Below are positions 10,808-51,555 of a stretch of 64,000 bases of DNA, piece after piece. Below the pieces are notes generated by a model, which made no database searches, was not told where the DNA came from, and saw only the letters and a list, made by a program, of their open reading frames with translations. This stretch comes from Candidatus Dojkabacteria bacterium. GTDB lineage: Bacteria > Patescibacteriota > Dojkabacteria > SC72. Numbering within the stretch: position 1 is the first letter of the stretch; every line of letters starts with the position of its first letter. The position numbers and the translations under genes were made by a program. The stretch lies in assembly GCA_050943415.1 (NCBI GenBank), contig JBMNPD010000002.1:5036-69035 (forward strand), given 5' to 3'.

Positions 10808-10822
10808 CAGAATTTAGGTTAA

Positions 10823-11878: not shown

Positions 11879-12019
11879 GTGTAAAAGACATTACTAATTA
11901 GTTGAGTTATTTTAACATTATTTGAGGAAGAAATGTATATACTTATTTTCAACTTTTTATTACTGTCTATATACAAACAAATAATTTGTTCAGATGTGAA
12001 TAGTTGTAAAAAACTTGTA

Positions 12020-12862: not shown

Positions 12863-12870
12863 AACGAGGT

Positions 12871-13083
12871 TTACTCTTGTTCTTTTCTAAGCTTCTTGTA
12901 GCACTTCATACAAGCAACTATCTTGGTCTTAATACCATCTATTTCCACTTCTATATTTCTTAGATTTGGTTTAAAAGCTCTTTTTGTTTTAGGAGCTTTG
13001 TATCTCCATCCTGTAGAGTGTTTGTGTTGGATTCTATTTCCAAACACAGTAGATTTTGCACATAATTCACATGTCTTTGCCAT
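12871..13083 (-). CDS. rpmB: 50S ribosomal protein L28
   Basis: MAKTCELCAKSTVFGNRIQHKH...KRAFKPNL matches the L28 pattern (C..C/GK..GN..SH...R.F.PNL). Confidence 0.85.
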   Translation of the reverse strand: MAKTCELCAKSTVFGNRIQHKHSTGWRYKAPKTKRAFKPNLRNIEVEIDGIKTKIVACMKCYKKLRKEQE

Positions 13084-13181
13084 AATGGGGAGAATTATAT
13101 ATTAAAAAATGTATAGAAGCAAGGTAAATATTAAATATATGAACTAAGTTGCCCTGTAATAATAATTAGTATAGATATTAG

Positions 13182-23822: not shown

Positions 23823-24542
23823 ATGGGAATCCTTATAGTCATAGCAGGAATCCTTATCCCTCTCATTGGTGTTGGCACCGTAGTTTATATATTAATCCCT
23901 CTCTCAAAGAGTAAAGGCAAGAAAAAGATTTTCACTTCTAAAAACCTGCTCCACTTCTATCTGTACTTAATCTCTTTTGCTTCATTAATCATAGGTGTAG
24001 TAGCATTAGCTGTTGCTCTAAACGGTTTGTTTGGACATAAATATTCACCTGAATTTTCTTTCAATTTGGAGTCACCAACAACAATGTATGTACCTGAAGA
24101 GAAGATTGATTACATAGACCCTGATTTTAAAGAGTGTTACAAAGGAGAACTTACAGAGATAGATGGTCAAAAGGTTTGTTTTGACAAACAACAAGCAAAG
24201 AAAGATGTCATTAATGGCTTGTCTGTTGCTATCCCAATGATTATTCTTTTCCTAATTCACAGACTCTCCATTTACTACATAGAAAGAAAAGGTACTTCTA
24301 CAGAGAACTTAAAAAAGATTTACCATTTTGCTTCACTAATACTGTTTAGTATTGGTGGATTAATAGCTATTCCTGTTGCAATATATCAACTACTTAACTA
24401 CCTTAACTTCAGACCTGAGGATGTAACTATGATAGATCCACCAGGGTTAGCAATATCCTTTGTCATCTTGGTTGTACCTGTATGGATAGTATTTCTTGTT
24501 AAAACAATTAAAATGAAGGATATTGAAGATAAGGACGAATAA
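23823..24542 (+). CDS. hypothetical polytopic membrane protein
   Basis: 239 aa. At least four hydrophobic helices. No motif. Confidence 0.5.
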   Translation: MGILIVIAGILIPLIGVGTVVYILIPLSKSKGKKKIFTSKNLLHFYLYLISFASLIIGVVALAVALNGLFGHKYSPEFSFNLESPTTMYVPEEKIDYIDPDFKECYKGELTEIDGQKVCFDKQQAKKDVINGLSVAIPMIILFLIHRLSIYYIERKGTSTENLKKIYHFASLILFSIGGLIAIPVAIYQLLNYLNFRPEDVTMIDPPGLAISFVILVVPVWIVFLVKTIKMKDIEDKDE

Positions 24543-29883: not shown

Positions 29884-29904
29884 TTGCTAAATGCATACTT
29901 AATG

Positions 29905-29937
29905 AAAGACCACCATTACGGTGGTCTTTTTCTTTTT
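29905..29937 (+). terminator. rho-independent terminator ending the ribosomal-protein cluster (no rpoBC follows)
   Basis: AGACCACCATTACGGTGGTCT followed by TTTTTCTTTTT. Confidence 0.75.
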
Positions 29938-29968: not shown

Positions 29969-31408
29969 CTAAATAGTATCTATCTCTTCATTCTCTACTA
30001 CATCTACTTTACAACTCCCTCCTTGATATACACCATATCCTCCATGTTCAAAGTAAGTATTCTGACATGTCAAAACATCAATATTCTCCTGTGAAGAAAT
30101 TACTAAAATATCAACATTGTAAACCTTAGCATAATTCCTAAGAGTACGATTCTTTAAATCTGTAAACAACATATCCCTAAACACATTAGCATCATTCCTG
30201 TTCTTCTCTTCAAAATAAAGATAGATTGTAGAACTCTCATCATTTCTAACATCATCATAACGGAAAGAATTAAAATCATCAGCATACATAACCTTGACCT
30301 TAACAGTATCTTTCAAAGAATCATCAACTTCATACATAACGCCATTTATATGCCCATAAGTATTAAAAAACAACTTCTCATCCATATCAAAATCAACAAC
30401 CTCTGTCTTCATCTCTACACCCTCTGGTGCTTCATCTACAAACTTCATTTTCGAAACCTCATACGAAGAAATACCTACACCGAAAGCTAATCCCAATATG
30501 GAAGCTACAAAAGCTATGAAGACACGAGTCCACTTACTTCTTCTACTTAATACAAAATTAAAACCAACATACAGAAGCATTACAACAAAAGCAATAAATG
30601 ATACTGCTAGTAATATTGGACCAAAATATGCAATACCATTAAACAACAGAACAAACAACATAGAGAGACCTACACCAGAACAGAAAAGTAAGAAAAGAAA
30701 TGGTAATAGTACAAATATTACAAAAATCTTAACAAAAAACAAAAAGACATTACCTAAAAAAGAAAGAATACCAAAATCATACCTAACAACCTTTGTCTCA
30801 GTAACAACACTCTCATTACTCACCTCTTCCTCAATCTCAACATCTTTACTTTTCTCTTTTTCTTCTTCAAACCTATCCAAAAATCTTACTTTGTAAATAT
30901 ATACAAACAAACCAACTGCAACTATGAAATATGCAACCTCTACAACTAAATGCCAAATATTTGCAAAAACAACCCCAATATTCCTACCTAAACACAGAAA
31001 GACATTTCCCCCTAGACTATCCAAAGAGCTGAAAGGTATTTTGACACATAGGATTAATAGAAATAGCACAAAAATTTCCAATAGAAACTTAAACCTACCC
31101 TTTGTTGTAAGTGCTGCGAAATTCTTAAAAGTACCTCTAAGTAAGAGATTAAAGCCATTAAGCATATCTGAAAAAGTATATTTTTTACTCTGTTCACTCC
31201 TAATCTGTGCAACATCATCTTTCATTAACTCATCAAGAGTACAATTAAAAATATCACACATCTTAAGAATCTTTTCTGTCTCAGGATACGCTGCTCCAGA
31301 CTCCCATTTAGAGACAGCTTGTCTGGATACACCTAGCTTGTAAGCAAAATCTTCCTGAGAGAGATTTGCTGACTTACGTAGATGTTCTAAATTTTTTCTA
31401 AAACTCAT
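29969..31408 (-). CDS. XRE-family HTH protein fused to a multi-TM region and an extracytoplasmic domain (membrane-bound regulator)
   Basis: N-terminal LRKSANLSQEDFAYKLGVSRQAVSKWESG is a Cro/C1-type HTH. About four TM helices. C-terminal ~200 aa soluble domain. Confidence 0.7.
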   Translation of the reverse strand: MSFRKNLEHLRKSANLSQEDFAYKLGVSRQAVSKWESGAAYPETEKILKMCDIFNCTLDELMKDDVAQIRSEQSKKYTFSDMLNGFNLLLRGTFKNFAALTTKGRFKFLLEIFVLFLLILCVKIPFSSLDSLGGNVFLCLGRNIGVVFANIWHLVVEVAYFIVAVGLFVYIYKVRFLDRFEEEKEKSKDVEIEEEVSNESVVTETKVVRYDFGILSFLGNVFLFFVKIFVIFVLLPFLFLLFCSGVGLSMLFVLLFNGIAYFGPILLAVSFIAFVVMLLYVGFNFVLSRRSKWTRVFIAFVASILGLAFGVGISSYEVSKMKFVDEAPEGVEMKTEVVDFDMDEKLFFNTYGHINGVMYEVDDSLKDTVKVKVMYADDFNSFRYDDVRNDESSTIYLYFEEKNRNDANVFRDMLFTDLKNRTLRNYAKVYNVDILVISSQENIDVLTCQNTYFEHGGYGVYQGGSCKVDVVENEEIDTI

Positions 31409-31734
31409 AACTACTAATATATATTAATTTAAATTAGCTGATTATATTCATATATCACAAACGCAACCACCAACTTACGGTTGTTTTATGACAACTACAG
31501 GTTGCATATTAGTAGAATATACCAAATTTCCAAGAAAAACACTCCTATGGCAGACCTAGGTTTAACCTAGGTTACACCTCAAACAGGAGAAAATAAACAT
31601 AAGCCAATACTCACTTTTTAAACACCAAAAAGGTTAGACCTAAGCTCAACCTAAATCCCTTTTGTAATTCCTTACTAGCTATATACTTCTGAGAGGTGGG
31701 AATAGGTCTGGCCTAGGTTTAACCCCACCCGCAT

Positions 31735-31768
31735 TTTGTCCTATAAAATTAAGAAGCATGATATAATA
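31735..31768 (+). promoter_or_regulatory. extended -10 promoter (TGATATAAT) for duplicated small gene copy 1
   Basis: CATTTTGTCCTATAAAATTAAGAAGCATGATATAAT followed by AAAAGGAGAAATAAG ATG. Confidence 0.5.
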
Positions 31769-31799
31769 ATCCCCTAGCACATTTAAAAGGAGAAATAAG

Positions 31800-32153
31800 A
31801 TGAGTAAAATTTACTTATACAAAACAACTTACGTGTCGAAACCAGAATTTTTGGCAGCTGCATACAATGCAGCTATTCTCATCGATCCTAGCTATGCTCA
31901 CTACATAATGACCAAATCAGAGGCACTCTTTCTTTTATGTCAAAAAATGTGGCGTGGTCATCCACAATACTTTGGCATCCTAAAAGGTAAACAAATTTTC
32001 CTCAACTTAGACGAAGAATGTGTTGATGTAGCAGCATACAATAAACACAATGGTAGGAGACTTGCTCAAAAGGTTCTACTCCTTTTGCAACAATCGCACC
32101 AACCTGAATCAGATGAAATACGAACGGCTCGCGATTACAACCCGTTCACTTAA
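31800..32153 (+). CDS. hypothetical small protein, paralog A (117 aa)
   Basis: Own promoter and AAGGAG RBS. Shares with paralog B: LAAAYNA/LAAFYNA, N..GxxLAQKVLxLLxQ, and an (I/E)(R/C)TAR C-terminus. Confidence 0.55.
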   Translation: MSKIYLYKTTYVSKPEFLAAAYNAAILIDPSYAHYIMTKSEALFLLCQKMWRGHPQYFGILKGKQIFLNLDEECVDVAAYNKHNGRRLAQKVLLLLQQSHQPESDEIRTARDYNPFT

Positions 32154-32291
32154 TTAATCTCTTCATGATGAGCTAGAATGCCTAGGGTAGTTATATCTAC
32201 ATGAGTTCCACTCTGTAACCCTAGACATATTTCTCTCCTTGCCAACCCATGCATAAATATAATTCAGTATCTAAATTATCATGCCATATCT

Positions 32292-32350
32292 TTGATGACA
32301 TACTCTCCTTTTACAACATGGGTATTAGAAAATGGAATATCTCAACAAAC
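32292..32350 (+). pseudogene. duplicated 5' fragment of the 7TM gene (MMTYSPFTTWVLENGISQQTLQLL…) created by the cassette duplication
   Basis: The first ~20 codons are identical to the start of the intact 33054 gene. The frame then runs into repeat-derived sequence (track ORF 32292..32501). Confidence 0.6.
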
Positions 32351-32542
32351 ATTACAGTTACTACTTAGATTAAACCTAAGTAGAACCTCAAACCAGCAGA
32401 TAAAGAGAGAAGCCTACACCCACTTTTCAAACACCAAAAAGGCTAGACCTAGGCCTAACCTAAATCCCTTTCCTAACTCCTTACTAGCTATATACTTCTG
32501 AGAAGTGGAAATAGGTCTGACCTAGGTTTAACCTCACCCGCA

Positions 32543-32576
32543 TTTTGTCCTATAACATCAAGAAGCATGATATAAT
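32543..32576 (+). promoter_or_regulatory. extended -10 promoter (TGATATAAT) for duplicated small gene copy 2
   Basis: CATTTTGTCCTATAACATCAAGAAGCATGATATAAT followed by GAAAGGAGATAAA ATG. Confidence 0.5.
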
Positions 32577-32606
32577 GATGTCCTAGCTCATTAGAAAGGA
32601 GATAAA

Positions 32607-32927
32607 ATGAGTACTATTATTTCTGGTAAACCATTCACCAGGTCCCAATTATTAGCAGCTTTTTACAATGCAACCGCTACACCTCCTGGCATTAGGAACT
32701 TCCTGATGACCGAAGAAGATGCTGATAGATACTTGTATCAGTATAGCGACTACATAGATGAAGTAGAGGGCAAAAAACTTTACATCAATCTCTTCTTTCT
32801 TGACGAGATAGATGTAACCAAATATAACGAATTCAACGGCGAGAACTTGGCACAAAAAGTTCTCAACCTCCTCGAGCAAGGGTACGCCCCTGACTCAAAG
32901 GAAATCTGTACAGCTAGAATGAGCTAG
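32607..32927 (+). CDS. hypothetical small protein, paralog B (106 aa)
   Basis: See paralog A. The 3' end merges into the conserved flank (GCTAGAATGAGCTAGAATTAGAATGCCTAGG). Confidence 0.55.
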   Translation: MSTIISGKPFTRSQLLAAFYNATATPPGIRNFLMTEEDADRYLYQYSDYIDEVEGKKLYINLFFLDEIDVTKYNEFNGENLAQKVLNLLEQGYAPDSKEICTARMS

Positions 32928-33053
32928 AATTAGAATGCCTAGGATAGTTATATCTACATGAGTTCCACTCTATAAACCCTAGGCATATTTCTCTCCTTGC
33001 CAACCCATCCATAAATAAATATAATTCAGTATCTAAATTATCATGCCATATCT

Positions 33054-33725
33054 TTGATGACATACTCTCCTTTTACAACATGGATGTTAGAAAATGGAAT
33101 ATCTCAACAAACATTACAGTTACTAGTATCCATAACAGTAATAGCCACCATAGTAAGTATATTTCGATACATCATCGGAACAAAATCATACGGCATCTAC
33201 GCACCAATAATCCTAGCAATATCCTACTCATACACAGGACTAAGATACGGACTAGCAATAACCTTCATTACCGTAGCCACCACCCTACTCTCATACACCA
33301 TGCTTAAAAAAATACGAATGCACTACATCACTAGAATAGCCATCAACTACTGCTTACTTGCCATGACAATAATCATATTCATCATGACAATAAACAAATA
33401 CGGATTAGGACTAGAAAAAGTCTCCCTCATATCACCCCTAGCCCTCATATCAATAACTGCCCTCTCAGACTTCTTCATAAAACAATTCACACAGAAATCA
33501 TTAAAAGTATCAATCTCACTCCTACTAGAAACCGTACTCATAGCAACAATCGGTTGGTACATAATCACAAGAGTTTCCATCTCTAACTACATGATTAACA
33601 ACCTCTGGATAATTCCAATCCTCATCATAATCAACCTAGTCATAGGACAATTTAAAGGATTAAGAATCAAAGAAATAATTAGATTTAAATCACTTTCAGA
33701 CGAGAAAGAAAATGTTTCTAAATAA
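33054..33725 (+). CDS. polytopic (about 7TM) membrane protein of the kind associated with alpha-L-glutamate-ligase-like ATP-grasp systems (7TM module without transglutaminase domain)
   Basis: 223 aa, 6-7 hydrophobic helices. Overlaps the downstream ATP-grasp gene by 14 nt. The classification comes from gene context, not from a sequence motif. Confidence 0.6.
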   Translation: MMTYSPFTTWMLENGISQQTLQLLVSITVIATIVSIFRYIIGTKSYGIYAPIILAISYSYTGLRYGLAITFITVATTLLSYTMLKKIRMHYITRIAINYCLLAMTIIIFIMTINKYGLGLEKVSLISPLALISITALSDFFIKQFTQKSLKVSISLLLETVLIATIGWYIITRVSISNYMINNLWIIPILIIINLVIGQFKGLRIKEIIRFKSLSDEKENVSK

Positions 33726-35160
33726 CAAATACAAAGAAATACTTGGAGTAAACAGACGAAATCAAGAATATATTCGACCATACAACTCCAACAAAGCAAA
33801 AAATATTGCTGACAACAAAATATTAACAAAAAGAATTCTTAGTAGAAATGGAATTCAAACGCCTGAAGTATACAAACTAATTAGAAACAGAAAACAATTA
33901 GAGTTTCTAAATTGGGAATCATTACCAAAAAGCTTTGTCATAAAACCAAATAAAGGAACTGGAGGTAGTGGAATAGTAATCTTCTACGGTAAGAAGAAAG
34001 GAGAACTTGCATGGATTAGACCTAATGGTGATGTAATGAGTAAGAAAGATATAACCCTTCACATAGCAAACATACTAGAAGGCAGATACTCCATGGGTAA
34101 CAAAAATGATATAGCCATAATTGAGGAACGAGTAAAAACTGACCCATTCCTAAAGCAATACTCCTACAAAGGAGTACCAGACCTTAGAATAATCTGCTTC
34201 AATGGAGTACCTGTAATGGCAATGACTAGAATCCCAACCAAAAGATCAAACGGTACTGCGAACCTACACTCAGGAGCAATATGTACAGGAATTGATATTG
34301 CAACAGGCATTACTACCTACTCTATGCAGATGAATCTTAAAAGTCCTCTAGATGATATATATGAAGATATAGAGGCCACTACAGATCTAAAAGAAAACAA
34401 AAAGTTAAGTGGAATAGCTATACCTAACTGGAATGAGATATTGGAAATAGCTTTGAAATGTCAAAAAGTAAGCAAAATTGGCTTCATAGGTGTAGATATA
34501 ACAATCGATGCAGACAAAGGACCTGTTGTATTTGAACTAAACGCTAGACCAGGACTTGGTATACAAGTTGCAAACAAAGCAGGTTTAAGATCTAGGTTAG
34601 AATTAGTTAAAGGGATTAAAGTAAAAAGCATTAAACACGGTATTAAGATTGCAAAAGATCTCTTCGGTGGAGAGATAGAGGAAAGTATCGAATCCATTAG
34701 TGGTAGAAAAGTTGTAAATATTGTAGAAAAAGTAACCATATTTAAACAGACAAATAAGAAAGAAAAAGAAGACAAATTACAACCACTCAGAGCCTTTATG
34801 GACACAGGATACATGACATCTAGAATAACAGAGACAACCGCACACAGAATGGGCTTCATCTCTACAACAAAATATTTCAATTCTTTAGATATACCTAAAA
34901 AATTCAATTCACATAAAGAGGCACAGGAATATATCGATCAGAATAACAAAATATTGACTATGGAAGAAAAAATAAAGAGAATTGCTAGAGTTGTTGATGA
35001 TGGTGATATTAAAATCCGTCCAGTCATTGACGTTACTATTAAAATTGCAGGAGAGATAAAGGATTTAGAAGTTGTAATAATGCAGGACCTAGAGTATCCT
35101 GTAATCATAGGACGTACTGATTTAAAAGGCTATTTAATTGATACAACAAATACATTTTAA
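33712..35160 (+). CDS. alpha-L-glutamate-ligase-like ATP-grasp enzyme (RimK-related, GVNRRNxEYI type) fused to a C-terminal retropepsin-like aspartic protease domain
   Basis: N-terminal ILGVNRRNQEYIRPYNSNKAKNIADNKILTKRIL...GIQTPEVY signature. ATP-grasp core (FVIKPNKGTGGSGIVIF; VVFELNARPGLG). C-terminal ~140 aa carries DTG (LRAFMDTGYMTSRI) and YPVIIGRTDLKGYLIDT. Confidence 0.75.
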   Translation: MFLNNKYKEILGVNRRNQEYIRPYNSNKAKNIADNKILTKRILSRNGIQTPEVYKLIRNRKQLEFLNWESLPKSFVIKPNKGTGGSGIVIFYGKKKGELAWIRPNGDVMSKKDITLHIANILEGRYSMGNKNDIAIIEERVKTDPFLKQYSYKGVPDLRIICFNGVPVMAMTRIPTKRSNGTANLHSGAICTGIDIATGITTYSMQMNLKSPLDDIYEDIEATTDLKENKKLSGIAIPNWNEILEIALKCQKVSKIGFIGVDITIDADKGPVVFELNARPGLGIQVANKAGLRSRLELVKGIKVKSIKHGIKIAKDLFGGEIEESIESISGRKVVNIVEKVTIFKQTNKKEKEDKLQPLRAFMDTGYMTSRITETTAHRMGFISTTKYFNSLDIPKKFNSHKEAQEYIDQNNKILTMEEKIKRIARVVDDGDIKIRPVIDVTIKIAGEIKDLEVVIMQDLEYPVIIGRTDLKGYLIDTTNTF

Positions 35161-35162
35161 TT

Positions 35163-36143
35163 ATGAAAACATACAAAGAATATCTAAAAGAATCAGGGAA
35201 CATACATCTAGCATATTATGTACAAGCAGCAGACAAGCTTGGGATTAAGTATAAGATTTTGGTTAAAGGCTTACTTGCTGAATTTAATGCAAATAACAAA
35301 TATTGGCATATAATAAATACAGCTACTCCACTAACAACAACTACATCTACAACAATATGTAAAAGAAAAAATCTAACACATTTGATTTTAAGAGAACATA
35401 ATGTACCTGTACCTATTCAACAAGATTTACTCGCACCAATAGATGCTATAAAATTCTTTGCTGAACATAAAGATATTGTCATCAAGCCAACACAACAGCT
35501 AGGAGGAAAAGGTGTTACAATACTACCTCAGAACGAGGAGCAAGTACTAAAGGCTTTTGATATAGCCCTAGAATCTTCACATTCTAAGACTACTACAAAA
35601 GTCATAGGTGAGAAGTTTGTCCATGGAGAGAACTACAGATTCTTAGTACTAGGAGATGAGGTTATAGCAGTTGCTAGAAGAAAGTCCGCCCATGTTATAG
35701 GAAATAGCAAGGACAGTATAAGAAAACTCATAGAGAACAGTAATGCACAAAGAAAAGACACTCTCCTCATGCCCATTGTCATAGATAACGAAGTAAACAT
35801 TAAGCTACAAAGAGATGGTCTAAATCTAGAAAGTGTTCCAAAAGAAGGGCAAGAAGTCATACTTCGATATAACTGCAATCTTACTACAGGCGGTACTACA
35901 GAAGAATGTATGGAGGAAGTAAATGATTACTACAAGCAAATAGCCATAAAAGCAGTAAAGGTTGTAGGTTCTAAATTTGGAGGTGTTGATATAATAGCTA
36001 AGGACATATCAAAGCCTGACGAAGTTGCTGTTAATGAGATAAACTACAATCCAGGTTTGAGATTACATTACAAAGTAGACAAAGGAAACGTGGTTGATGT
36101 TGCCTCCATCATAATGGAATACATCAGAGATAAATATATATAA
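35163..36143 (+). CDS. ATP-grasp ligase, cyanophycin-synthetase N-domain-like (326 aa)
   Basis: VIKPTQQLGGKGVTIL. ENYRFLVLGDEVIAVARRKSAHVIGNSKDSIRKLIENSNAQR parallels CphA (DYRLLVVG.K.VAA..R.PA.VIGDGK.TI.ELIE..N.DP.R). VDIIAKDISKP. Confidence 0.7.
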   Translation: MKTYKEYLKESGNIHLAYYVQAADKLGIKYKILVKGLLAEFNANNKYWHIINTATPLTTTTSTTICKRKNLTHLILREHNVPVPIQQDLLAPIDAIKFFAEHKDIVIKPTQQLGGKGVTILPQNEEQVLKAFDIALESSHSKTTTKVIGEKFVHGENYRFLVLGDEVIAVARRKSAHVIGNSKDSIRKLIENSNAQRKDTLLMPIVIDNEVNIKLQRDGLNLESVPKEGQEVILRYNCNLTTGGTTEECMEEVNDYYKQIAIKAVKVVGSKFGGVDIIAKDISKPDEVAVNEINYNPGLRLHYKVDKGNVVDVASIIMEYIRDKYI

Positions 36144-36161
36144 TTTAACACTCCAAATCCA

Positions 36162-37865
36162 ATGAAAGACACATGGGTTCTACAAGGCTTAAATTTCATT
36201 TCACCTACTTCAGTAGTAGTTATGGGAATGGAAGAAAACAAAGATGTTAAAAAACTACTTGATTTAATATCATCATATCACCCCATTTTTATAAAAAAGT
36301 ACTACTTCAAAGACTCCTATCTGTATATTGAAACACCTATACCATTTCTTTGGAGAGAAGCTAGTGAATACCTAAAGAAGCTTGCCAAACAGAAAATGTC
36401 ATATGAAGAATGTAGAGAATATATTGTAGAAGTCATCATAAAACACCGAATAAAATCTATGTCAACCATACCTATATTACATAGTGCATTAACACAAGGG
36501 TACGAGGTTACACCATATATTGTGAGCGACAAAGTTATAGCTGTTGATGATGTAGGTTATACAAAAACATTCAACCGTAGATATACCTTAGGTTGTGGAA
36601 AGAATTCCCATGTAACTTTTTCTATATCTTCTTCTAAAGACGCTGTCGTAGCAAAAACAACTCAAAGAGACAAATATATTACTAATACGATGATTTCTAA
36701 ACTTGGTCTTCCTATGCCTACAAACTATATTGTTAATGATAAAGCTGATATTAAAAAAGTTTGGAAAAAACTTAATAAACCTGTTGTTGTTAAACCAGTA
36801 GGTTTAACAGGTGGTTCAGGAGTTGTAGTAGATATTAATACAATAGAACAAGCAGAGAAAGCATTTGATTTTGCTACCAAAGGTATTAAAACAAAACAAA
36901 GGAAAGAGTGGCAAACTAAAATAATGGTACAAGAACAGGTAGAAGGTGAAGATTATAGATTACTAGTTGTAGATGAGAAATTGGAAGTTGTTACCAAAAG
37001 AATCCCTGCATTCATCGTAGGTGACGGCAAGAGTACAATCGAGGAACTAATCGAACAAACCAATGCGGATCCTAGAAGAGATATTACTAATCCAACTCAT
37101 ACTTTGAAACCCATAAAGATAGATGATCCCCTACTCGACTATCTTAAGGAACAGAAACTTTCGTTGAAAGATATTCCAGAGAAAGATGAGAAGATACAGG
37201 TAAGAAAGGTTGCAAGTATGAGTCAGGGAGGTATAACTGAGGATTTTACAGATCAGGTTAGTGCAGAGATTAAATATATTGTTGAAAGTATTGCTCAATC
37301 TATTCATGCATTTACATTAGGTGTAGATATTTTGTGTAAAGATATTAGCAAACCACTTACTCAAGACAATGGTGCTATTCTAGAGGTCAATACTATGCCA
37401 GAGGCATATCTAAATCTCTACCCTGTTTTGGGTACAAAGAGAGATTATGTAGCAGATACATATGTTAAGAAATTACTCAAGGATAATAGATGCAAAAAAA
37501 TAGTAGTTGTTGGTAATCCTGAGAAAGATATACCTACTCTTCTTAAGGACAAGTTCCTTTTCTGGTCATATCTAAAACAAGATGATGTAGTTGGAGAATA
37601 CAGAGAGGGAGAGATAAGGATAAATGGATTGGAAATAAATAATGGCTTAGAGAAATGGAAAGGTATAGAGGCACTAAAGGTTAATGCTTCTCTAGATGCA
37701 ATAGTTATTCATCATAGGAATTGGGAGGATGTACAAGCTAATGGTTTAGGTTTCAACAAGATAGACTTGTTAATAGTTACTAAAGATATGAGAAAAGATG
37801 ATAGATTTAAGCAAATGATTAAATATAGGTTAAGTGGTTATATATCTAGAATAAGGGTAATCTAA
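36162..37865 (+). CDS. ATP-grasp ligase, cyanophycin-synthetase N-domain-like (567 aa, extra N- and C-terminal regions, no Mur-ligase domain)
   Basis: VVKPVGLTGGSGVVV. DYRLLVVDEKLEVVTKRIPAFIVGDGKSTIEELIEQTNADPRRDITNP is the CphA hallmark. GVDILCKDISKPL. EVNTMPEAYLN. Confidence 0.75.
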   Translation: MKDTWVLQGLNFISPTSVVVMGMEENKDVKKLLDLISSYHPIFIKKYYFKDSYLYIETPIPFLWREASEYLKKLAKQKMSYEECREYIVEVIIKHRIKSMSTIPILHSALTQGYEVTPYIVSDKVIAVDDVGYTKTFNRRYTLGCGKNSHVTFSISSSKDAVVAKTTQRDKYITNTMISKLGLPMPTNYIVNDKADIKKVWKKLNKPVVVKPVGLTGGSGVVVDINTIEQAEKAFDFATKGIKTKQRKEWQTKIMVQEQVEGEDYRLLVVDEKLEVVTKRIPAFIVGDGKSTIEELIEQTNADPRRDITNPTHTLKPIKIDDPLLDYLKEQKLSLKDIPEKDEKIQVRKVASMSQGGITEDFTDQVSAEIKYIVESIAQSIHAFTLGVDILCKDISKPLTQDNGAILEVNTMPEAYLNLYPVLGTKRDYVADTYVKKLLKDNRCKKIVVVGNPEKDIPTLLKDKFLFWSYLKQDDVVGEYREGEIRINGLEINNGLEKWKGIEALKVNASLDAIVIHHRNWEDVQANGLGFNKIDLLIVTKDMRKDDRFKQMIKYRLSGYISRIRVI

Positions 37866-37977
37866 TACCCTACTCACCAAATTAAGTCAAATTTGGTGAA
37901 TGACACTCACTAGATTTGTGTGAATATGGGGAATGGGTTTGTTGTTTTTTAAAGGAGAGATTTTATAAAAGAAACAT

Positions 37978-38029
37978 CCTAGTGCCTGAGATTTATGAGG
38001 GAATAATCCACTCTACTCAGGACACTAGG
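37978..38029. terminator. long inverted-repeat hairpin (copy 0): bidirectional terminator between the ATP-grasp operon and small gene 1
   Basis: CCTAGTGCCTGAG...CTCAGGACACTAGG around a ~26-nt loop GGGAATAATCCACTCTA. Same family as the hairpins at 38470..38525 and 39021..39075. Confidence 0.5.
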
Positions 38030-38041
38030 TCCACATTAAAA

Positions 38042-38290
38042 TTATTTCTTATCCTTAATCTTTTCTATAAAGAAGATTACTGATACTCCATAATATAGCC
38101 ACCCTACTATGCTTACAAACACATATAGGAATTTAATTGGTAATAAGTCGGCTAGTAGGATTGTAAATGGTCCAACTAGCATTGCAGATGAATACTCATA
38201 TTTCTCGAAATCCTTTCTCCATAAATAATATGATCTAACAACTAAACCAATAATTATACTAAGTAGACAAAACCAACGATGAAAACTCAT
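38042..38290 (-). CDS. small membrane protein 1 (82 aa, 2-3 TM)
   Basis: Consensus promoter TTGTCA-17-(TG)TACAAT upstream at 38345..38378 and RBS AAGGAGAAACAG ATG. A terminator hairpin lies downstream. Confidence 0.5.
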   Translation of the reverse strand: MSFHRWFCLLSIIIGLVVRSYYLWRKDFEKYEYSSAMLVGPFTILLADLLPIKFLYVFVSIVGWLYYGVSVIFFIEKIKDKK

Positions 38291-38329
38291 CTGTTTCTCC
38301 TTTTCTTTTTAATTCCTCTAAAGAAATTT

Positions 38330-38530
38330 TTAATGCGCTACACTACATTGTACCAATTTTTGCCTCACTTGACAATACTATAGGTCGGGATACTTCTAAT
38401 ATAATAAAACTCCTCTTCACAAGTAAATAACAAAAAAGAAAAGTTAAAACCATATATACAAAAATAATAATCTAGCGCCTGAGATTCTGGGGAATAATCC
38501 ACCCTATATATCTCAGGCACTAGATCCATG
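38330..38530 (-). repeat. conserved ~200-bp non-coding module (terminator hairpin + spacer + near-consensus promoter), copy 1 of 2 full copies
   Basis: About 85% identical to 38880..39085. Shared pieces: CTCCTCTTCACAAGTAAA…AAAAGAAAAGTTAAAACCATATATACAAAAA…TAATAATCTAGCGCCTGAGATTCTG(G/A)GG…ATATATCTCAG…, and the promoter core TACCAATTTTTGCC(T/C)CACTT(G/A)ACAA. Confidence 0.7.
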
Positions 38531-38533
38531 CAA

Positions 38534-38833
38534 TCAAGATTTTAAGGATTTAATTTTATTTCTTAGAAGAGACAAATTCTTTCTGCAGTTCAAAAAGGAT
38601 TTCTTTAATGAGGACCATTCGTCCTTACAATAATAACCGATATTTACACATAAGATTGCCCAAACAACCCATTTATTGCTTATACCCTCCAATCCGTCAG
38701 AGAATACTGCAATAAACAGTGTTGATAAGAACATGACATTTCTCCTGATATGTTGATCATTCTTTAAATCCATATAACACAAACAAGAGAAATAAAAACC
38801 TACAACACCTAATAATATAAACCCTGTCCACAT
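38534..38833 (-). CDS. small membrane protein 2 (99 aa, Cys-rich, about 3 TM)
   Basis: Promoter TTGTTA-17-(TG)TATAAT at 38891..38925. RBS AAAGGAGAATGTT ATG. A terminator hairpin lies downstream. Confidence 0.5.
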   Translation of the reverse strand: MWTGFILLGVVGFYFSCLCYMDLKNDQHIRRNVMFLSTLFIAVFSDGLEGISNKWVVWAILCVNIGYYCKDEWSSLKKSFLNCRKNLSLLRNKIKSLKS

Positions 38834-38879
38834 AACATTCTCCTTTATTTTTCGATCCTATCCTAAAAAATCTTGATTT

Positions 38880-39085
38880 TGAAAGTACGACTGTACATTA
38901 TACCAATTTTTGCCCCACTTAACAACGCTATAGGATAACACACTTCTAATATAATAAAACTCCTCTTCACAAGTAAAAACAAAAAAGAAAAGTTAAAACC
39001 ATATATACAAAAAAATAATAATCTAGCGCCTGAGATTCTGAGGGATAACCACTCTATATATCTCAGACACCAGATCTCCGTACAA
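38880..39085 (-). repeat. conserved ~200-bp non-coding module (terminator hairpin + spacer + promoter), copy 2
   Basis: See 38330..38530. Confidence 0.7.
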
Positions 39086-39086
39086 A

Positions 39087-39248
39087 TTAAAAGGTGGAGT
39101 TTAACAACTCCTTAATACCTTTAATTTCTTCTCTCGCAAGAGAGAGGTAGGTTTCCAATTCTTGCAACATCTTACACCTCTTTCTTACTGCGTAAACTAC
39201 TACTAATGCTACTCCCAGAGCAGCAAAGACAAAAAGTATTGCATACAT
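39087..39248 (-). CDS. small membrane-anchored protein 3 (53 aa, 1 TM + amphipathic tail)
   Basis: MYAILFVFAALGVALVVVYAVRKRCKMLQELETYLSLAREEIKGIKELLNSTF. Own promoter (TGATATAAT) and RBS AAGAAAGAGG. Followed by the conserved hairpin. Below the 60-aa ORF-track cutoff. Confidence 0.35.
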   Translation of the reverse strand: MYAILFVFAALGVALVVVYAVRKRCKMLQELETYLSLAREEIKGIKELLNSTF

Positions 39249-39388
39249 AATTAAACCTCTTTCTTACTGAATGTACGATAATGTAATTATATCAAGCTTG
39301 TATACACTACTCAACACTATAAGACCACATACTCCTCCCCACCCATGATATAATAAAACATTAATATTAATTTAAAAATATTCAAACA

Positions 39389-40342
39389 ATGAAATACCTA
39401 ATCATAGACAAAAGACAAAGAGTAGAAGTTAAAACTATGGGTGAAATACCTACAGGTTCTGCAAGATTAGTTGAAGAATTAGAAAAAAGAAACATAGAAT
39501 GTGATTTCATATACAATGACCAACTCGAATTCATATACCAAGACCAAAAAACAACAATACTAGCTGGTGGCAACGACATTCTCACATATACCCACATCAT
39601 ATTCAGAGGCCATGCACTACACATAGACAAGGAATACCATTTCAAGAGATACATAATCGACCATATAGACGAATACAATTCCAAAAATCCAGACAAGAAG
39701 ATACTAGTGCAAAACTCAGAAGCAATCAAAAGATTCCCCTACTACAACAAAATAGAAATTGCTCAAATCTGTAACAAACACAACCTCCCATACTTCAACA
39801 CATACTACAGAACAGATGGAGAATATACACAAGAAAGAAACTACCTTAAACAATACCCACTCATCATAAAAGAGTATACAGGTGCAAACAGAGTAGAAAT
39901 GATAGATGGAGTTGAAAAAATCAAAAAGAATGTATTTAAACTAGAGAAAGACGAAGACTACAAACAAGAAGGATTAGATGGACAAGACCTAACCAACTTC
40001 TTTATCCAAGAATTCTCAGATGCAGGCGAAGACTACAGAATCTTCGTAAAGCTAGGAAAAGTAATAGCAGGATGGAAAAGAAAAGCTACCTCTGGATTTA
40101 TGACAGTAAGCAAAGGAGAGTATGAAATGTACAATGAGCCAAATGAAGAAATAAAAGAGATTGCTGAGAAAATGGCATCTGTTTTAGATGCAGACTTCAT
40201 GGCTGTAGACTTCATGTACATCCATGGTAAGCCACACATACAAGAGATAAGCTTCCATCCAGGATACAAAGCATACGAGACAAAGATAGAGGGTACTCCT
40301 GTGAACATCGCAGAAGCAATAATTACTGCGTTTAAGGAGTAA
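39389..40342 (+). CDS. RimK-like ATP-grasp ligase (317 aa)
   Basis: LIIKEYTGANRVEM. EDYRIFVKLGKVIAGWKRKATSGFMT is the ATP-grasp central/flexible-loop pattern (DYR..V.G.KV.A..KR). AVDFMYIHGKPHIQEI. Extended -10 promoter TGATATAAT at about 39346. The stop abuts the convergent DUF1704 gene. Confidence 0.65.
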   Translation: MKYLIIDKRQRVEVKTMGEIPTGSARLVEELEKRNIECDFIYNDQLEFIYQDQKTTILAGGNDILTYTHIIFRGHALHIDKEYHFKRYIIDHIDEYNSKNPDKKILVQNSEAIKRFPYYNKIEIAQICNKHNLPYFNTYYRTDGEYTQERNYLKQYPLIIKEYTGANRVEMIDGVEKIKKNVFKLEKDEDYKQEGLDGQDLTNFFIQEFSDAGEDYRIFVKLGKVIAGWKRKATSGFMTVSKGEYEMYNEPNEEIKEIAEKMASVLDADFMAVDFMYIHGKPHIQEISFHPGYKAYETKIEGTPVNIAEAIITAFKE

Positions 40343-41506
40343 TTAGAGACCTACCTTCTTAAATATACTTAACCACTCTTCCTTACTAGGAACATTGGTA
40401 GCCTTTGGAATAAGACCGTCCTCTACCCATTCACATTGCTTGAAAGTAATCTTTCCTGAGTAAAGCATATTGTACAACAAAGGATTCTTCTCTAATCTAG
40501 CAGACACCTTCTTAAAACCTCTAAAGTAAACAACATCCTTAGCATAGATACCTGGTTTTGAAGTGTCTGATAATCCTCTCTTCACCCTGTATGTAGTACT
40601 AAATGCAGAGAATTTCGGCAATATTGCATACAAACAGTTATACAACTCTCTAAACGTCATCTTTTGACCAACATATATAGCATATACAAGAGCAACCTTT
40701 TTTCTAAGCCAATTCTCTGTAAGAAGATCCATATTACTTTCATTCCACGTAGCAAGACCCTCCTCTACATCTAAATACTCTGGTAAAGTAGCATTACCAA
40801 GTGCGGGAAACCCACTATTAGAACCATTTACAGACCTTAACACATGCGTACCAACCTCATGAACAATGGTCTTTTTCAATTTCAACTTACTCCTAACAAT
40901 ATTTTTATCAACCAATATTTGCTTCCTTTTAATACCTACTTTTACACTATTCTTAGCAATATTCATAGATTCAGCAACCTCCCAATCATCAAGACCTAAT
41001 ATTGAAAACACCTTTCTAAAAACCTCTGAAATCTCATCATAACCTAACAATTCATCAGTATCAACTTTCTTGCTACTTTCTATAAGGTTGTAGTTACTAA
41101 CATTCCCCCGAAGTACTCTACATGAATTCCTAAACAACTTAGCAAAAGGCAAACCAAACCTAGCAGTAGAAATCTCTGTTACCAACTCATTATTTCCTAC
41201 AGCTTTTATTAATTCGTTAGCCTCCTTTTTTGAAGCTATGAGGTCAATATAGAAAGAAGAAATCCTAGGATCAACATCAGAAATTTCCTCCACAGTAGAG
41301 AGAAACTTCAGTATTTTATCATTCTTGTTAGCAACACCCCTATATTTGAACACAGGATTATATGTATCTGAATCAAAAAATTTCTTCTTCTCCTCCTCAA
41401 GATTAATTGGGGTAAAAACTAAAGCTGTTGGAAGTCTTAACTGATCTAAGAAAGTTGTTACTTCATCAAGCTTCATCTGCTTTTTCTTTTTATCAAAAAT
41501 CCCCAT
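40343..41506 (-). CDS. DUF1704 (QEGLA-motif, flavohemoglobin expression-modulating family; MATCAP-like zinc carboxypeptidase fold)
   Basis: HEVGTHVLRSVNG is a putative HExx(x)H zinc site. EEGLATW is a variant of the family-defining QEGLA motif. 387 aa, typical for this family. Confidence 0.65.
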   Translation of the reverse strand: MGIFDKKKKQMKLDEVTTFLDQLRLPTALVFTPINLEEEKKKFFDSDTYNPVFKYRGVANKNDKILKFLSTVEEISDVDPRISSFYIDLIASKKEANELIKAVGNNELVTEISTARFGLPFAKLFRNSCRVLRGNVSNYNLIESSKKVDTDELLGYDEISEVFRKVFSILGLDDWEVAESMNIAKNSVKVGIKRKQILVDKNIVRSKLKLKKTIVHEVGTHVLRSVNGSNSGFPALGNATLPEYLDVEEGLATWNESNMDLLTENWLRKKVALVYAIYVGQKMTFRELYNCLYAILPKFSAFSTTYRVKRGLSDTSKPGIYAKDVVYFRGFKKVSARLEKNPLLYNMLYSGKITFKQCEWVEDGLIPKATNVPSKEEWLSIFKKVGL

Positions 41507-41525: not shown

Positions 41526-42545
41526 TTATCTCCTAAAATCTCGGTTAAAGGTAAAACTCCTCTCTCCAGTAGCTATCAATTCCAAAGCTATACCTGTACC
41601 CTTAACAACACAGTATATCGGTTCATCGGCAACATGTGAAGGAACGCCTGTAGCCCTAGAGAACAACTTGTCCAAATTCCTCAACTTAGATGTACCACCA
41701 CTCATCACCATTCCTCTGTCTATGATATCAGCAGAAAGCTCAGGCGGAGTCTTCTCCAAAACATTCTTAATACTTCGAATAATTGACTTCAAAGGAAAAT
41801 CAATAGCCTTAGCCACATCATTAGAATTAACAACAATCGACTTCGGCATACCTGCACCAACATCTCTACCCCTTACCTCCATCTCTGCAGGATCTTTAAC
41901 CTCAACTGCAGACCCTATCTTTATCTTAATACTCTCTGCAGTCTGCTCTCCAATCATAAGTCCTTTTTTCTTCCTCATGTATGAAATGATATATTCATTA
42001 AGAGAATCTCCTGCTACTCTTAGCGACTCATACTCCACTATTCCATCAAGAGACATAACAGCAATCTCTGCAGTACCACCTCCCATATTCACAATCATAT
42101 TACCAGAGGAAGTATGAATAGGAAGCTGTGCACCTAAAGCTGCAAGAAGAGGCTCTGGCAAAAGCGTAATACTCTTTGCACCAACAGAGTTAGCTGCTTT
42201 CAAAACAGCTCTCTCCTCCACAGATGTAATACCTGCAGGAACACTAATAACAACATCAGGCTTAAAGAACCTAGATTTACCAAGTGCTTTGTCAAAGAAA
42301 TACCTAAGCAATGCCTCTGTTACCCTAGAATCAGCTATAACTCCACTTCTCAAAGGCCTCTTTGCAACAATATTATCGGGAGTCTTGCCAATCATCTCCT
42401 TTGCTTCCTTACCAACAGCTATGACTGTAAAAGTATTAACATCAATAGCAACAACAGTTGGCTCTGTGAGAACAATACCCTCCCCCTGTACAAAAACTAC
42501 AGAGTTTGCAGTACCTAAATCTATACCCAGTTTTTTTCCAATCAT
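41526..42545 (-). CDS. second MreB/Mbl-like actin-family ATPase (orphan paralog)
   Basis: LGIDLGTANSVVF...PTVVAIDV. NMGGGTAEIAV. 339 aa. Diverged from the mreB at 10823. Confidence 0.8.
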   Translation of the reverse strand: MIGKKLGIDLGTANSVVFVQGEGIVLTEPTVVAIDVNTFTVIAVGKEAKEMIGKTPDNIVAKRPLRSGVIADSRVTEALLRYFFDKALGKSRFFKPDVVISVPAGITSVEERAVLKAANSVGAKSITLLPEPLLAALGAQLPIHTSSGNMIVNMGGGTAEIAVMSLDGIVEYESLRVAGDSLNEYIISYMRKKKGLMIGEQTAESIKIKIGSAVEVKDPAEMEVRGRDVGAGMPKSIVVNSNDVAKAIDFPLKSIIRSIKNVLEKTPPELSADIIDRGMVMSGGTSKLRNLDKLFSRATGVPSHVADEPIYCVVKGTGIALELIATGERSFTFNRDFRR

Positions 42546-50184: not shown

Positions 50185-51555
50185 CTAATATACAATTTTA
50201 GGAGCAAAACCCCAATGATCAGCTGCTTTTGCTAAAGCAGAATCAGGATGCTCTTTAATCCATTCATCTAAATTTCCTCTACCTAAAGCAATATCTTTAG
50301 CTTGTACTACAGCTTCTACCCCTGCCTCTATGCCCCAAGGATGACCTAACACTCCTCCTCCACACTGAATCATAATATTTTCACCTAAACGAGCGATGAC
50401 ATCTTGCAGTACACCAGGATGCAAACCTCCTGAAGCTACATGCCAAACAGGCTTCATACCGTACCAATTCTGACCAAGTGTAATACTTGATGGCGGAGTA
50501 ATATCTAATTCTAAAACATCTCTGACTAGTTTAGGCTCTCCATAGTTCTCCATTTTAGTCTTTGGTGCACCTCCATGAAAAGAGTCTACACCTAACAATC
50601 TCATAATTTTAGCAATGGCAACCATTGACATAGAGAAGTCTAAAATCTCTCCCTTATCATATACACCAGGTCCGGATTCTCTACTAAACAAACTATGCAT
50701 TGCTCTATGTGCATGTATTGCAAGGCCAGGATTTTTCAACCTCATTGTATGAACTGCAGAAAATCCAGTAGTAACAACATCCATCATCAACCACCTACCA
50801 CCATGAGCTTTTATGAGTCCTGCTCTGTCAAGCATAGTTTCCATATTCGAATGAGTTACATTGCAAAAGTAGAACTTCTTTTTTCCTGTACTCTCCTCGA
50901 CCTCTTTCTGCACTTCTAAAACAGCCTTACATCTATCTTCAAATTTGTTAAAAAACAAACTGGTTAGATTTTCATCATCTTTCATACCATGATATTCACC
51001 ATTTGCAGCAGTAAAGAGAATCCTTGCCAAATCAGCCTGTTCCTGTGCTGTTCTACCAACTTTTGGCTTTGGAACAGTAAGAAGAAGTGGACCTCTCTCA
51101 ATCTGCATCTGCTCTCGTATACCATCTATACCAAATTGAGGTCCAGGAAAGGCTTGTACCATCTTCCTTGGAAACCTAATATCTATGCATCTAAATGCCT
51201 TTAACATCTTCATTCCACCAACATTCCCAACAATTCCTGCAAGCAAACCTGACATATTATCAACTTCAAACAAATCTACCTTGTACGCAATTTTGAAAGT
51301 ATTGGTCTCTGGTTCAAGATCGTAAGCTACAGCTTTCATCTCATCAGCCATAGGTACACCAGAACTTTCACCATCATACACTTTTGTCCATGTACCTGTA
51401 GAACTCTCTGCTGCACACGCTCCTGCTACTTCCACAAACTTATCTTTAGCCTCATCGATCATTTCTACATCCAGATATGTAATGATGTAGTCCTCATCAG
51501 GATTTTTAGGTTGCCATCCTTTCGGTGCAACATATGGATTTTCTTTCTCAGCCAT
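50185..51555 (-). CDS. rbcL: RuBisCO large-subunit homologue, form II/III-like
   Basis: Catalytic K-D-D-E cluster (GMKDDENLTS). IHAHRAMH (His294 region). SGGLHPG loop. 456 aa. The GGLDF segment is altered to GEYHG. Confidence 0.8.
   Translation of the reverse strand: MAEKENPYVAPKGWQPKNPDEDYIITYLDVEMIDEAKDKFVEVAGACAAESSTGTWTKVYDGESSGVPMADEMKAVAYDLEPETNTFKIAYKVDLFEVDNMSGLLAGIVGNVGGMKMLKAFRCIDIRFPRKMVQAFPGPQFGIDGIREQMQIERGPLLLTVPKPKVGRTAQEQADLARILFTAANGEYHGMKDDENLTSLFFNKFEDRCKAVLEVQKEVEESTGKKKFYFCNVTHSNMETMLDRAGLIKAHGGRWLMMDVVTTGFSAVHTMRLKNPGLAIHAHRAMHSLFSRESGPGVYDKGEILDFSMSMVAIAKIMRLLGVDSFHGGAPKTKMENYGEPKLVRDVLELDITPPSSITLGQNWYGMKPVWHVASGGLHPGVLQDVIARLGENIMIQCGGGVLGHPWGIEAGVEAVVQAKDIALGRGNLDEWIKEHPDSALAKAADHWGFAPKIVY

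Follow-up and report, generated by a model that had tools for sequence, protein, structure and literature searches.

We analyzed a 64,000-nucleotide stretch of a Candidatus Dojkabacteria genome (contig JBMNPD010000002.1; the window in what follows) and a cluster of six genes at its positions 33054–41506, which encode a seven-transmembrane (7TM) protein, four ATP-grasp ligases and a zinc carboxypeptidase. The cluster is a Rlo/Rim-type system, so called after rloABC of Pseudomonas aeruginosa and the RimK/RimB pair, that has been enlarged by CphA2-like and RimK-like ligases and a MATCAP-like peptidase. Five of the genes lie on the forward strand: the 7TM protein (33054–33725, 223 aa), ligase 1 (33712–35160, 482 aa), ligase 2 (35163–36143, 326 aa), ligase 3 (36162–37865, 567 aa) and ligase 4 (39389–40342, 317 aa). 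The sixth, encoding the carboxypeptidase (40343–41506, 387 aa), lies on the reverse strand. An initial annotation, made from the sequence alone, had delimited the same six open reading frames (ORFs), and its coordinates proved accurate, as did the 14-nt overlap between the 7TM and ligase 1 genes, the 2-nt gap between ligases 1 and 2 and the 0-nt stop-to-stop abutment of the convergent pair. Profile searches upheld the families assigned to all six ORFs. The host had been described as a low-GC organism resembling the candidate phyla radiation (CPR), in agreement with its placement in Dojkabacteria and with the GC content of ~34% in the DNA analyzed. Its nearest homologues bear the labels Candidatus Dojkabacteria or WS6, and one protein of the window is 100% identical to one from a metagenome-assembled Dojkabacteria genome.

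The 7TM protein matched PF14402 (7TM_transglut; 9e-17, 61.8 bits, cutoff 25) and aligned solely to positions 310–505 of the 508 in the RloB model. It is thus an RloB-type 7TM module without the N-terminal inactive transglutaminase domain, as had been proposed. The ATP-grasp domain of ligase 1 (residues 1–303; 33712–34620) is of the RloC, or alpha-L-glutamate-ligase-like, type, with matches to PF14397 (2.9e-68, 230.5 bits, cutoff 31.4) and to positions 9–291 of the 317 in TIGR02291 (1.6e-87), the latter at 293 bits and just below the equivalog cutoff of 314. The expected GVNRRNxEYI signature is present as LGVNRRNQEYI, and the E-x-N motif is invariant among orthologs. Against TIGR00768 the protein reached 54 bits (cutoff 143), so it falls below the RimK-family threshold.

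The second half of the initial proposal for this gene, a retropepsin fused to the ligase, was confirmed by structure prediction. The C-terminal domain (residues ~355–482; 34774–35160) was close to the detection limit by sequence, with 22.5–26 bits to PF05618 (under the cutoff of 27) and a profile match to PDB 9g59 at E 0.0012. The predicted structure of ligase 1 combines a RimK/LysX-like fold with a retropepsin, and the model confirmed the C-terminal domain as a retropepsin fold of clan AA (PF05618, RimB-like; RimB/RloA family) with the catalytic D-T/S-G and a helical insertion past the DTG loop. D364, T365 and G366 are kept in 81, 82 and 77 of 82 orthologs, respectively. The RPV and GR motifs of the RloA/RimB family are also conserved and, by their position, probably correspond to R114 and R137 of RloA, the residues that matter most for cleavage of poly-Glu (PMC12239564). 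Two positions ahead of the catalytic Asp, at the site of the substrate-contacting K46 in RloA (PMC12239564), ligase 1 has Phe. Neither this peptidase nor the MATCAP-like one carries a signal peptide, and the former is fused to a cytoplasmic ligase, which places both in the cytoplasm.

Ligases 2 and 3 both align to the G domain of cyanophycin synthetase. For ligase 2, the match covers positions 166–470 of PRK14016 (1.6e-64) and residues 176–478 of CphA1 (PDB 7wac; 7e-36); its E-x-N motif is invariant in 77 orthologs, and judged by these alignments it is a bare, stand-alone G domain. Ligase 3 matched the G domain at 2.5e-76, and its AlphaFold2 model (predicted local distance difference test score 89, predicted template modeling [TM] score 0.88) had CphA2 as its best Foldseek match (7ta5; E 2e-37, TM 0.70/0.68, ~613 columns covering the entire protein), with CphA1 structures next. 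The ligase 3 profile aligned to CphA1 residues 188–536 and takes in the beginning of the M domain; at the position of the GTNGKT P-loop, ligase 3 reads VVVGNPEKDIP. As modeled, the architecture is the N + G + vestigial M of CphA2, the M part being a truncated, P-loop-less stub. R266 of the DYRLL motif aligns to StCphA2 R308 and is invariant, as is E-x-N; StCphA2 D212 falls opposite V162, two residues from an invariant D160, and T163 lies beyond the aligned region. The active Mur-like M domain of CphA1, marked by GTNGKT, was found in neither protein, ligase 2 consisting of the G domain only and ligase 3 having its P-loop replaced. The initial annotation had assigned the DYRLLVV...GDGKSTIEELIE...DPRR hallmark to both ligases and a Mur-ligase half to neither. 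The hallmark is exact in ligase 3 but diverged in ligase 2, and the absence of a Mur-ligase half is true of ligase 2, while ligase 3 retains the M stub in addition to its N domain.

Ligase 4, an ATP-grasp protein of the RimK/LysX/MptN/CofF clade, is weakly RimK-like (PF08443, 2.9e-07, 30.7 bits, cutoff 21; TIGR00768, 9e-13, 48 bits, well under the cutoff of 143). Within residues 285–292 the Mg-binding E-x-N has become E-x-S in 58 of 61 orthologs, with Gly in the other 3, and the enzyme may have a different metal coordination or an altered activity. The last gene encodes a MATCAP/DUF1704-type zinc carboxypeptidase, which matched PF08014 (MATCAP; 4e-26, 92 bits, cutoff 27), TIGR02421 (QEGLA; 3e-30, at 106 bits below the equivalog cutoff of 339) and human MATCAP (7z5g; 1.8e-14, with HExGTH and EEGLA aligned). 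The motifs are HEVGTH at residues 216–221 and EEGLA at 248–252, the latter having been misread as QEGLA; HExxxH and EEGLA are invariant in 55/55 orthologs. As far as their sequences tell, the cluster enzymes appear to have intact catalytic motifs.

For comparison within Dojkabacteria, we took one genome per GTDB species, found a ligase-1 relative in 130 of them and used the best 80 loci, all from Dojkabacteria or Patescibacteria. Co-linearity could be tested in 52 species-representative loci with enough flanking DNA, and 51 of these contained all six genes in the same order. The 7TM and ligase 1 genes were spaced at a median of −8 nt, successive ligases at 10, 18 and 2 nt, the two convergent genes at 0 nt, and the carboxypeptidase gene and the adjacent mreB2 at 22 nt. 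The overlap between the 7TM and ligase 1 genes, 14 nt in the window, was measured in 71 loci and had a median of 8 nt. Since ligase 4 follows ligase 3 at a median gap of 2 nt in relatives, the four ligases are contiguous there; the operon of three co-directional ligases first described is correct for this strain but corresponds to a four-ligase operon elsewhere. Identities across the cluster were 50–75%, on par with ribosomal proteins L1 and L10 of the same loci, and those of the 7TM protein 47–84% in nearly all of 84 Dojkabacteria loci, with three outliers at 32–40%. Gene order and spacing in 51 of 52 species genomes, together with fusions in other lineages, support the cluster as a co-localized unit and not a patchwork.

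The interval separating ligases 3 and 4 in the window (37866–39388) is a strain-specific insertion of ~550-bp tandem cassettes. Each cassette carries a small membrane ORF on the minus strand (38042–38290, 82 aa; 38534–38833, 99 aa; possibly a third near 39112–39250), a TG-extended promoter-like site and a palindromic element, CTAGYGCCTGAGAT...ATCTCAGGCACTAG. Insertions at the same junction are also present in the close relatives L008, L010, L013, L016 and L031.

More distant relatives were collected with a ligase-1 profile against 1.84 billion cluster representatives, which returned 1,862 relatives, and Pfam scans were run on selected ones. Several of these proteins join the activities of the Dojkabacteria cluster in a single chain. 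The 916-aa P0250 combines ATPgrasp_ST, a RimB-like retropepsin and MATCAP; P0258 has ATPgrasp_ST, a compact D-T-S retropepsin-like segment and MATCAP; and P0263 has ATPgrasp_ST and MATCAP. For ~50 more representatives of 770–820 aa, a build like that of P0258 or P0263, the two that were scanned, is suggested by length and match coordinates. In P0283, ATPgrasp_ST and a RimB-like retropepsin are followed by a second ATP-grasp, P0252 has an added YdjC-like carbohydrate deacetylase domain, and P0350 unites 7TM and ATPgrasp_ST in one protein. Where the two are separate, the ligase gene came directly after the 7TM gene in all five contexts examined (P0250, P0258, P0276, P0395 and P0400). One distant 7TM protein bears N-terminal PKD domains, and two distant contigs hold further RimK/GshB-like ligases.

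By sequence, only the 7TM protein and ligase 1 are common to Dojkabacteria and five distant systems, ligase 1 at 32–46% identity including its C-terminal domain. For the CphA-like ligases 2 and 3 no counterpart was found in the five, and the two appear to be a Dojkabacteria addition; simpler, fused versions of the system exist on other Patescibacteria-like contigs. Fusions among ligase, retropepsin, MATCAP, 7TM and second ATP-grasp indicate that the parts belong to one pathway, and they are stronger evidence for a unit than the conserved gene order. At the place where a MATCAP-like gene or extra ligases would be, locus L089 has a DUF3541 protein (12672–13607) and locus L090 an unannotated 593-aa protein (10406–12187) followed by a heliorhodopsin; the DUF3541 protein and the 593-aa protein may be alternative editing or partner modules.

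The core of the cluster has described counterparts. In P. aeruginosa, rloABC encodes a retropepsin that is secreted and cleaves stretches of 8 or more Glu (RloA), an inactive transglutaminase fused to a 7TM module (RloB), with the transglutaminase-like domain predicted to face the periplasm, and a cytoplasmic ATP-grasp protein (RloC) (Lormand et al., mBio 2025; PMC12239564). The rloA1-3 triple mutant is rescued when rloB or rloC is deleted, the phenotypes of rlo mutants concern cell shape, β-lactams and hypo-osmotic conditions, and RloB was reported to be 96% proteobacterial (PMC12239564). The Dojkabacteria cluster likewise unites an RloB-type 7TM protein (PF14402), an RloC-type ATP-grasp (TIGR02291/PF14397) and an RloA/RimB-type retropepsin (PF05618 fold) in one operon, and its retropepsin shares the D-T-G triad and the RPV and GR motifs with RloA. 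It differs in the missing transglutaminase-like domain, in a retropepsin that is not secreted but fused, with a helical insertion, to the C-terminal side of a cytoplasmic ligase, in the addition of three ligases and a MATCAP-like carboxypeptidase, and in its CPR host. The 7TM protein and ligase 1 are thus a cytoplasmic, transglutaminase-less version of rloABC.

In the RimK/RimB pair, RimK glutamylates ribosomal protein S6 and RimB takes the tail off; RimB cleaves runs of at least 8 Glu and is required for efficient synthesis of poly-α-Glu by RimK (Little et al., JBC 2025; PMC11957791), which also produces free poly-Glu in vivo (PMC11957791, PMC12239564). A RimBK hybrid of ligase and retropepsin, with the protease N-terminal, has been published (PMC11957791). 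The Dojkabacteria system resembles these in pairing, by fusion, a cytoplasmic ATP-grasp of the α-L-glutamate ligase type with a retropepsin-like endopeptidase. Unlike in RimBK, the ligase is N-terminal, and unlike in RimK systems, the ligase lies outside the RimK family, the 7TM partner is obligatory and RimA is absent.

In cyanophycin synthesis, the N domain of CphA1 contains a cryptic hydrolase site that makes primers for polymerization (PMC9262961), and the sole active site of CphA2 extends the C-terminal carboxylate of a peptide chain (PMC10273328). Ligase 3 resembles CphA2 (7ta5, 8fxh; PMC10273328) in its N + G + truncated inactive M build, its DYRLL Arg equivalent to StCphA2 R308 and its intact E-x-N, but is only 20–23% identical to it and scores 243–258 bits against NCBIfam CphA cutoffs of 850–877. 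Whereas CphA2 is cyanobacterial and acts alone on β-Asp-Arg, ligase 3 sits in a five-gene operon with three other ligases, and no CphA1 or cyanophycinase was seen in the window. The carboxypeptidase shares the HExxxH and (Q/E)EGLA gluzincin motifs with QEGLA/DUF1704 proteins and with MATCAP (PF08014; 7z5g). Proteobacterial QEGLA/MATCAP proteins have an FGase-like domain, either fused to them or adjacent, and stand beside a GshB-like ATP-grasp, and one such pair, in Photobacterium, is strongly induced at low salinity; pairing of ligase and carboxypeptidase therefore recurs. In contrast to the QEGLA proteins of Vibrio and Pararhizobium, the Dojkabacteria enzyme has a single domain of 387 aa and lacks their FGase-like N-terminal half, and its partner ligase is not homologous to the GshB-like one. 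Orthology of ligase 4 to that GshB-like partner was considered and rejected, BLASTP finding no similarity between them. The architecture had been taken as undescribed, which does not hold for the core trio, already published as rloABC, nor for a hybrid of ligase and retropepsin, already published as RimBK. In the searchable literature we found no description of the six-gene Dojkabacteria cluster, of the link to MATCAP-like and CphA2-like enzymes or of the ligase–MATCAP fusions.

In Dojkabacteria the cluster is flanked by rplJ-rplL and mreB2. The mreB2 gene, listed as genomic context only (41526–42545, minus strand; PF06723 1.5e-128), lies 19 nt upstream of the MATCAP-like gene and is co-directional with it; the adjacency recurs in 54 Dojkabacteria loci at a median gap of 22 nt and is absent in the distant systems L087–L091. 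The window holds two MreB paralogues (10823–11878 and 41526–42545) with 42–45% mutual identity, of which one adjoins an MreC-family gene in related loci (L001), and the second, very conserved at 77–96% identity, always shares its strand with the MATCAP-like gene and lies 19–22 nt upstream of it. Divergent from the operon, a 479-aa XRE-type protein (29969–31408, minus strand) joins a helix-turn-helix (HTH) domain to a multi-pass membrane region and matches the transcriptional regulator family PHROG_8 over residues 1–69 (2e-17). In ~12 other Dojkabacteria loci a homologue lies just upstream of the 7TM gene and on the strand opposite to it, and this membrane-anchored protein may be a regulator of the ligase operon. 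Directly 3′ of rplL, a strong terminator-like hairpin (29904–29930) with an 11-bp stem is followed by a T-run, so the ligase operon of this strain is probably not read through from rplJL. A promoter-like site, TTGCCA-17-TATAAT (32997–33025, plus strand), is located ~30 nt upstream of the 7TM start codon; it agrees with 11 of 12 consensus positions and is the best of the region, but as a pattern match only, with no enrichment over shuffles, and it falls within a duplicated segment (D2/D4).

No candidate precursor or substrate gene and no conserved small ORF was found in or beside the cluster in any lineage examined. Compared across ~55–80 orthologs, L7/L12, the 7TM protein, MreB2 and all cluster proteins have C-termini that show neither acidity nor conservation, the S6 gene is absent from the window and from the related loci, and the only ORF in the window with an acidic tail (23823–24542) is unrelated. 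Two small ORFs upstream of the 7TM gene, at 31800–32153 (117 aa) and 32607–32927 (106 aa), had been put forward as substrates. They are divergent paralogues of 44% mutual identity in an ~800-bp tandem duplication (31554–33125), which also copies the initial ~70 nt of the 7TM gene along with the promoter-like site and thereby creates a decoy start at 32292. The noncoding flanks of the duplication are 83–95% identical, whereas the coding parts match in patches only, indicating that the small ORFs diverged faster than their surroundings. They had no Pfam, NCBIfam, PHROG or PADLOC match, no homologue in any of 84 related loci and self-matches only among 5.8 billion proteins. We rejected them as conserved substrates and regard them as strain-specific orphans.

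Rfam and tRNA scans of the island found no RNA genes. PADLOC gave no match for the six cluster proteins and only generic HTH matches to the XRE-type neighbor; with the cluster proteins unmatched, there is no sign of defense or mobility, and a reading of the cluster as anti-phage defense was dropped. Elsewhere in the window, a RuBisCO large-subunit homologue (50185–51555, minus strand; PF00016 8.5e-54, PF02788 8.7e-25) is located between prolyl- and arginyl-tRNA synthetase genes, and a very large ORF of 1,973 aa with a TTG start spans 57975–63896 on the minus strand.

All four ligases fall into ATP-grasp groups, with RimK, LysX, GshB and the CphA G domain as examples, whose members activate a peptide-like acceptor at its terminal carboxylate and attach an amino acid or a dipeptide. 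Both hydrolases are of types that act on peptides, the retropepsin being an endopeptidase, with a specificity for acidic runs among its characterized relatives, and the MATCAP-type enzyme a C-terminal carboxypeptidase. The explanation that we favor, at a confidence close to but short of even, is that the six genes form one Rlo/Rim-type unit, which works in the cytoplasm at the membrane and carries out the non-ribosomal assembly and trimming of an α-linked oligo- or polypeptide that is probably acidic (Glu/Asp-rich). The 7TM protein would dock ligase 1 at the membrane, as suggested by the overlap of their genes in all 71 loci measured and by their fusion elsewhere. Ligase 1, like enzymes of the RimK/RloC families, would phosphorylate a terminal α-carboxylate and add Glu-type residues. 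Its retropepsin, acting as a homodimer, would cut long acidic runs as RimB and RloA cut poly-Glu, both limiting the chain length and yielding new C-terminal ends as primers, in parallel to the need for RimB in synthesis by RimK and to the primer-making hydrolase of CphA1. The CphA-type ligases 2 and 3 could act on a C-terminal carboxylate of this kind too and append Asp or a dipeptide unit, and the RimK-like ligase 4 could add yet another residue type; with ligases 2–4 adding other residues, the product would be a hetero-oligomer and not plain poly-Glu. The MATCAP-like zinc carboxypeptidase would strip residues from the C-terminal end. The net effect would be an ATP-driven, reversible conversion of free amino acids into a polymer that may serve as an amino-acid store, an osmolyte buffer or a membrane-proximal anionic peptide. 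We favor a free polymer over a protein tail on three grounds: the neighborhood holds no conserved substrate gene, the cluster includes a CphA2-like polymerase, and RimK makes free poly-Glu.

The non-ribosomal addition and removal of amino acids had been proposed at the outset, and in this general form the proposal fits the known activities of the families. Its further part, that the product is exported or displayed through the 7TM protein, found no support: both peptidases are cytoplasmic, unlike the secreted RloA, and in Dojkabacteria nothing enzymatic of the system is predicted to lie outside the cell. The N-terminal domain of the 7TM protein varies among relatives (transglutaminase-like, PKD or none), which, by analogy, would suit the role of a sensor or anchor no less than that of an exporter.

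Several observations weigh against a cytoplasmic, free acidic polymer. No RloC-family enzyme has an observed product, which makes the amino acids assigned to the four ligases guesses from family membership. In the alignment, an equivalent of the Arg-binding D212 of StCphA2 could not be placed in ligase 3, and ligase 4, without the canonical Mg-binding Asn, may not be a normal ligase. The only characterized members of the MATCAP family act on the C-termini of tubulin, and the best-known substrate of RimK is S6; both favor the tailing of proteins. A synthetase fused to hydrolases could amount to a futile cycle unless regulated. Finally, RloA of Pseudomonas is periplasmic, and the ancestral system may act outside the cytoplasm, in which case the analogy may not transfer.

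If the target is instead a protein encoded elsewhere, such as S6, another ribosomal protein or the neighboring MreB paralogue, the ligases would add Glu, Asp or other residues stepwise to its C-terminus and the retropepsin and the MATCAP-like enzyme would erase the tail, as a bacterial counterpart of the tubulin TTL/TTLL–MATCAP cycle and of RimK/RimB on S6. Such tailing has precedent in the glutamylation of S6 by RimK-family enzymes and its reversal by RimB (PMC11957791). MATCAP is itself a protein C-terminal carboxypeptidase whose catalytic motifs are invariant in Dojkabacteria, and fusions of writer and eraser are what control of tail length would lead one to expect. The position of the Dojkabacteria cluster between rplJ-rplL and mreB2 also speaks for tailing, but these flanks are not kept in L087–L091, and L7/L12, MreB2 and the 7TM protein end in variable, non-acidic sequences. 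Together with the lack of an S6 gene in the window and the loci, an N + G + M-stub polymerase of the CphA2 type that suits polymer extension better, and an obligate membrane-protein partner that RimK systems do not have, this leaves protein tailing unlikely, though the foremost alternative.

A product destined for the cell envelope would be passed over the membrane by the 7TM protein into the wall or onto the surface, either as an anionic, teichuronopeptide-like polymer or as a change to the peptidoglycan stem or bridge, and would be tied to MreB-directed wall growth. Pfam labels PF14397 as "sugar-transfer associated," the distant fusion P0252 includes a YdjC-like carbohydrate deacetylase, and Mur ligases are encoded in the genome, as are two MreB paralogues, of which one lies beside the cluster. 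The PKD domains of the distant 7TM protein would be extracytoplasmic by analogy with the predicted periplasmic domain of RloB, and the Pseudomonas rlo mutant phenotypes also point to the envelope (PMC12239564). However, both Dojkabacteria peptidases are cytoplasmic, without a signal peptide and one of them fused to a ligase, the cluster contains no glycosyltransferase, flippase or lipid-carrier gene, no transport activity has been demonstrated for the 7TM family, and a variable extracellular domain is as much in keeping with a sensor as with an exporter; we consider an envelope peptide quite improbable. It is very improbable that the cluster is no unit at all and merely places unrelated ATP-grasps and peptidases side by side in a compact genome. 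CPR genomes are gene-dense and the synteny of rplJL and mreB is also kept, making order alone weak evidence, and the five distant systems yielded no ligase 2 or 3. Yet fusions join ligase 1 with retropepsin, MATCAP, a second ATP-grasp and 7TM in independent lineages, and more than 50 species maintain the overlap of the 7TM and ligase 1 genes and the operon gaps of 0–18 nt. A chance neighborhood is largely refuted for the 7TM protein, ligase 1, the retropepsin and MATCAP.

In its boldest form, which we offer as speculation and hold to be rather unlikely, the synthesis of a free polymer would mean that Dojkabacteria and, in simpler form, many other Patescibacteria make a new non-ribosomal hetero-polypeptide, assembled at the membrane by up to four ligases and edited by a retropepsin and a MATCAP-like enzyme, and that the writer–eraser logic of ligase and MATCAP is a prokaryotic forerunner of the eukaryotic tubulin tyrosination/glutamylation cycle. 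If true, the product would be a new class of biopolymer beside cyanophycin, poly-γ-Glu and poly-ε-Lys. The cluster occupies ~1% of a ~0.7-Mb genome and is conserved like ribosomal proteins, which suggests a probably central role in an uncultured, host-dependent lineage. The bacterial MATCAP/DUF1704 family gains a concrete partner in the RloC-type ligase, and CphA2-like polymerases are extended beyond cyanobacteria. Rlo matters to how Pseudomonas tolerates stress and forms biofilms, and the Patescibacteria fusions show which of its activities belong together; their all-cytoplasmic enzyme set should be easier to reconstitute in vitro.

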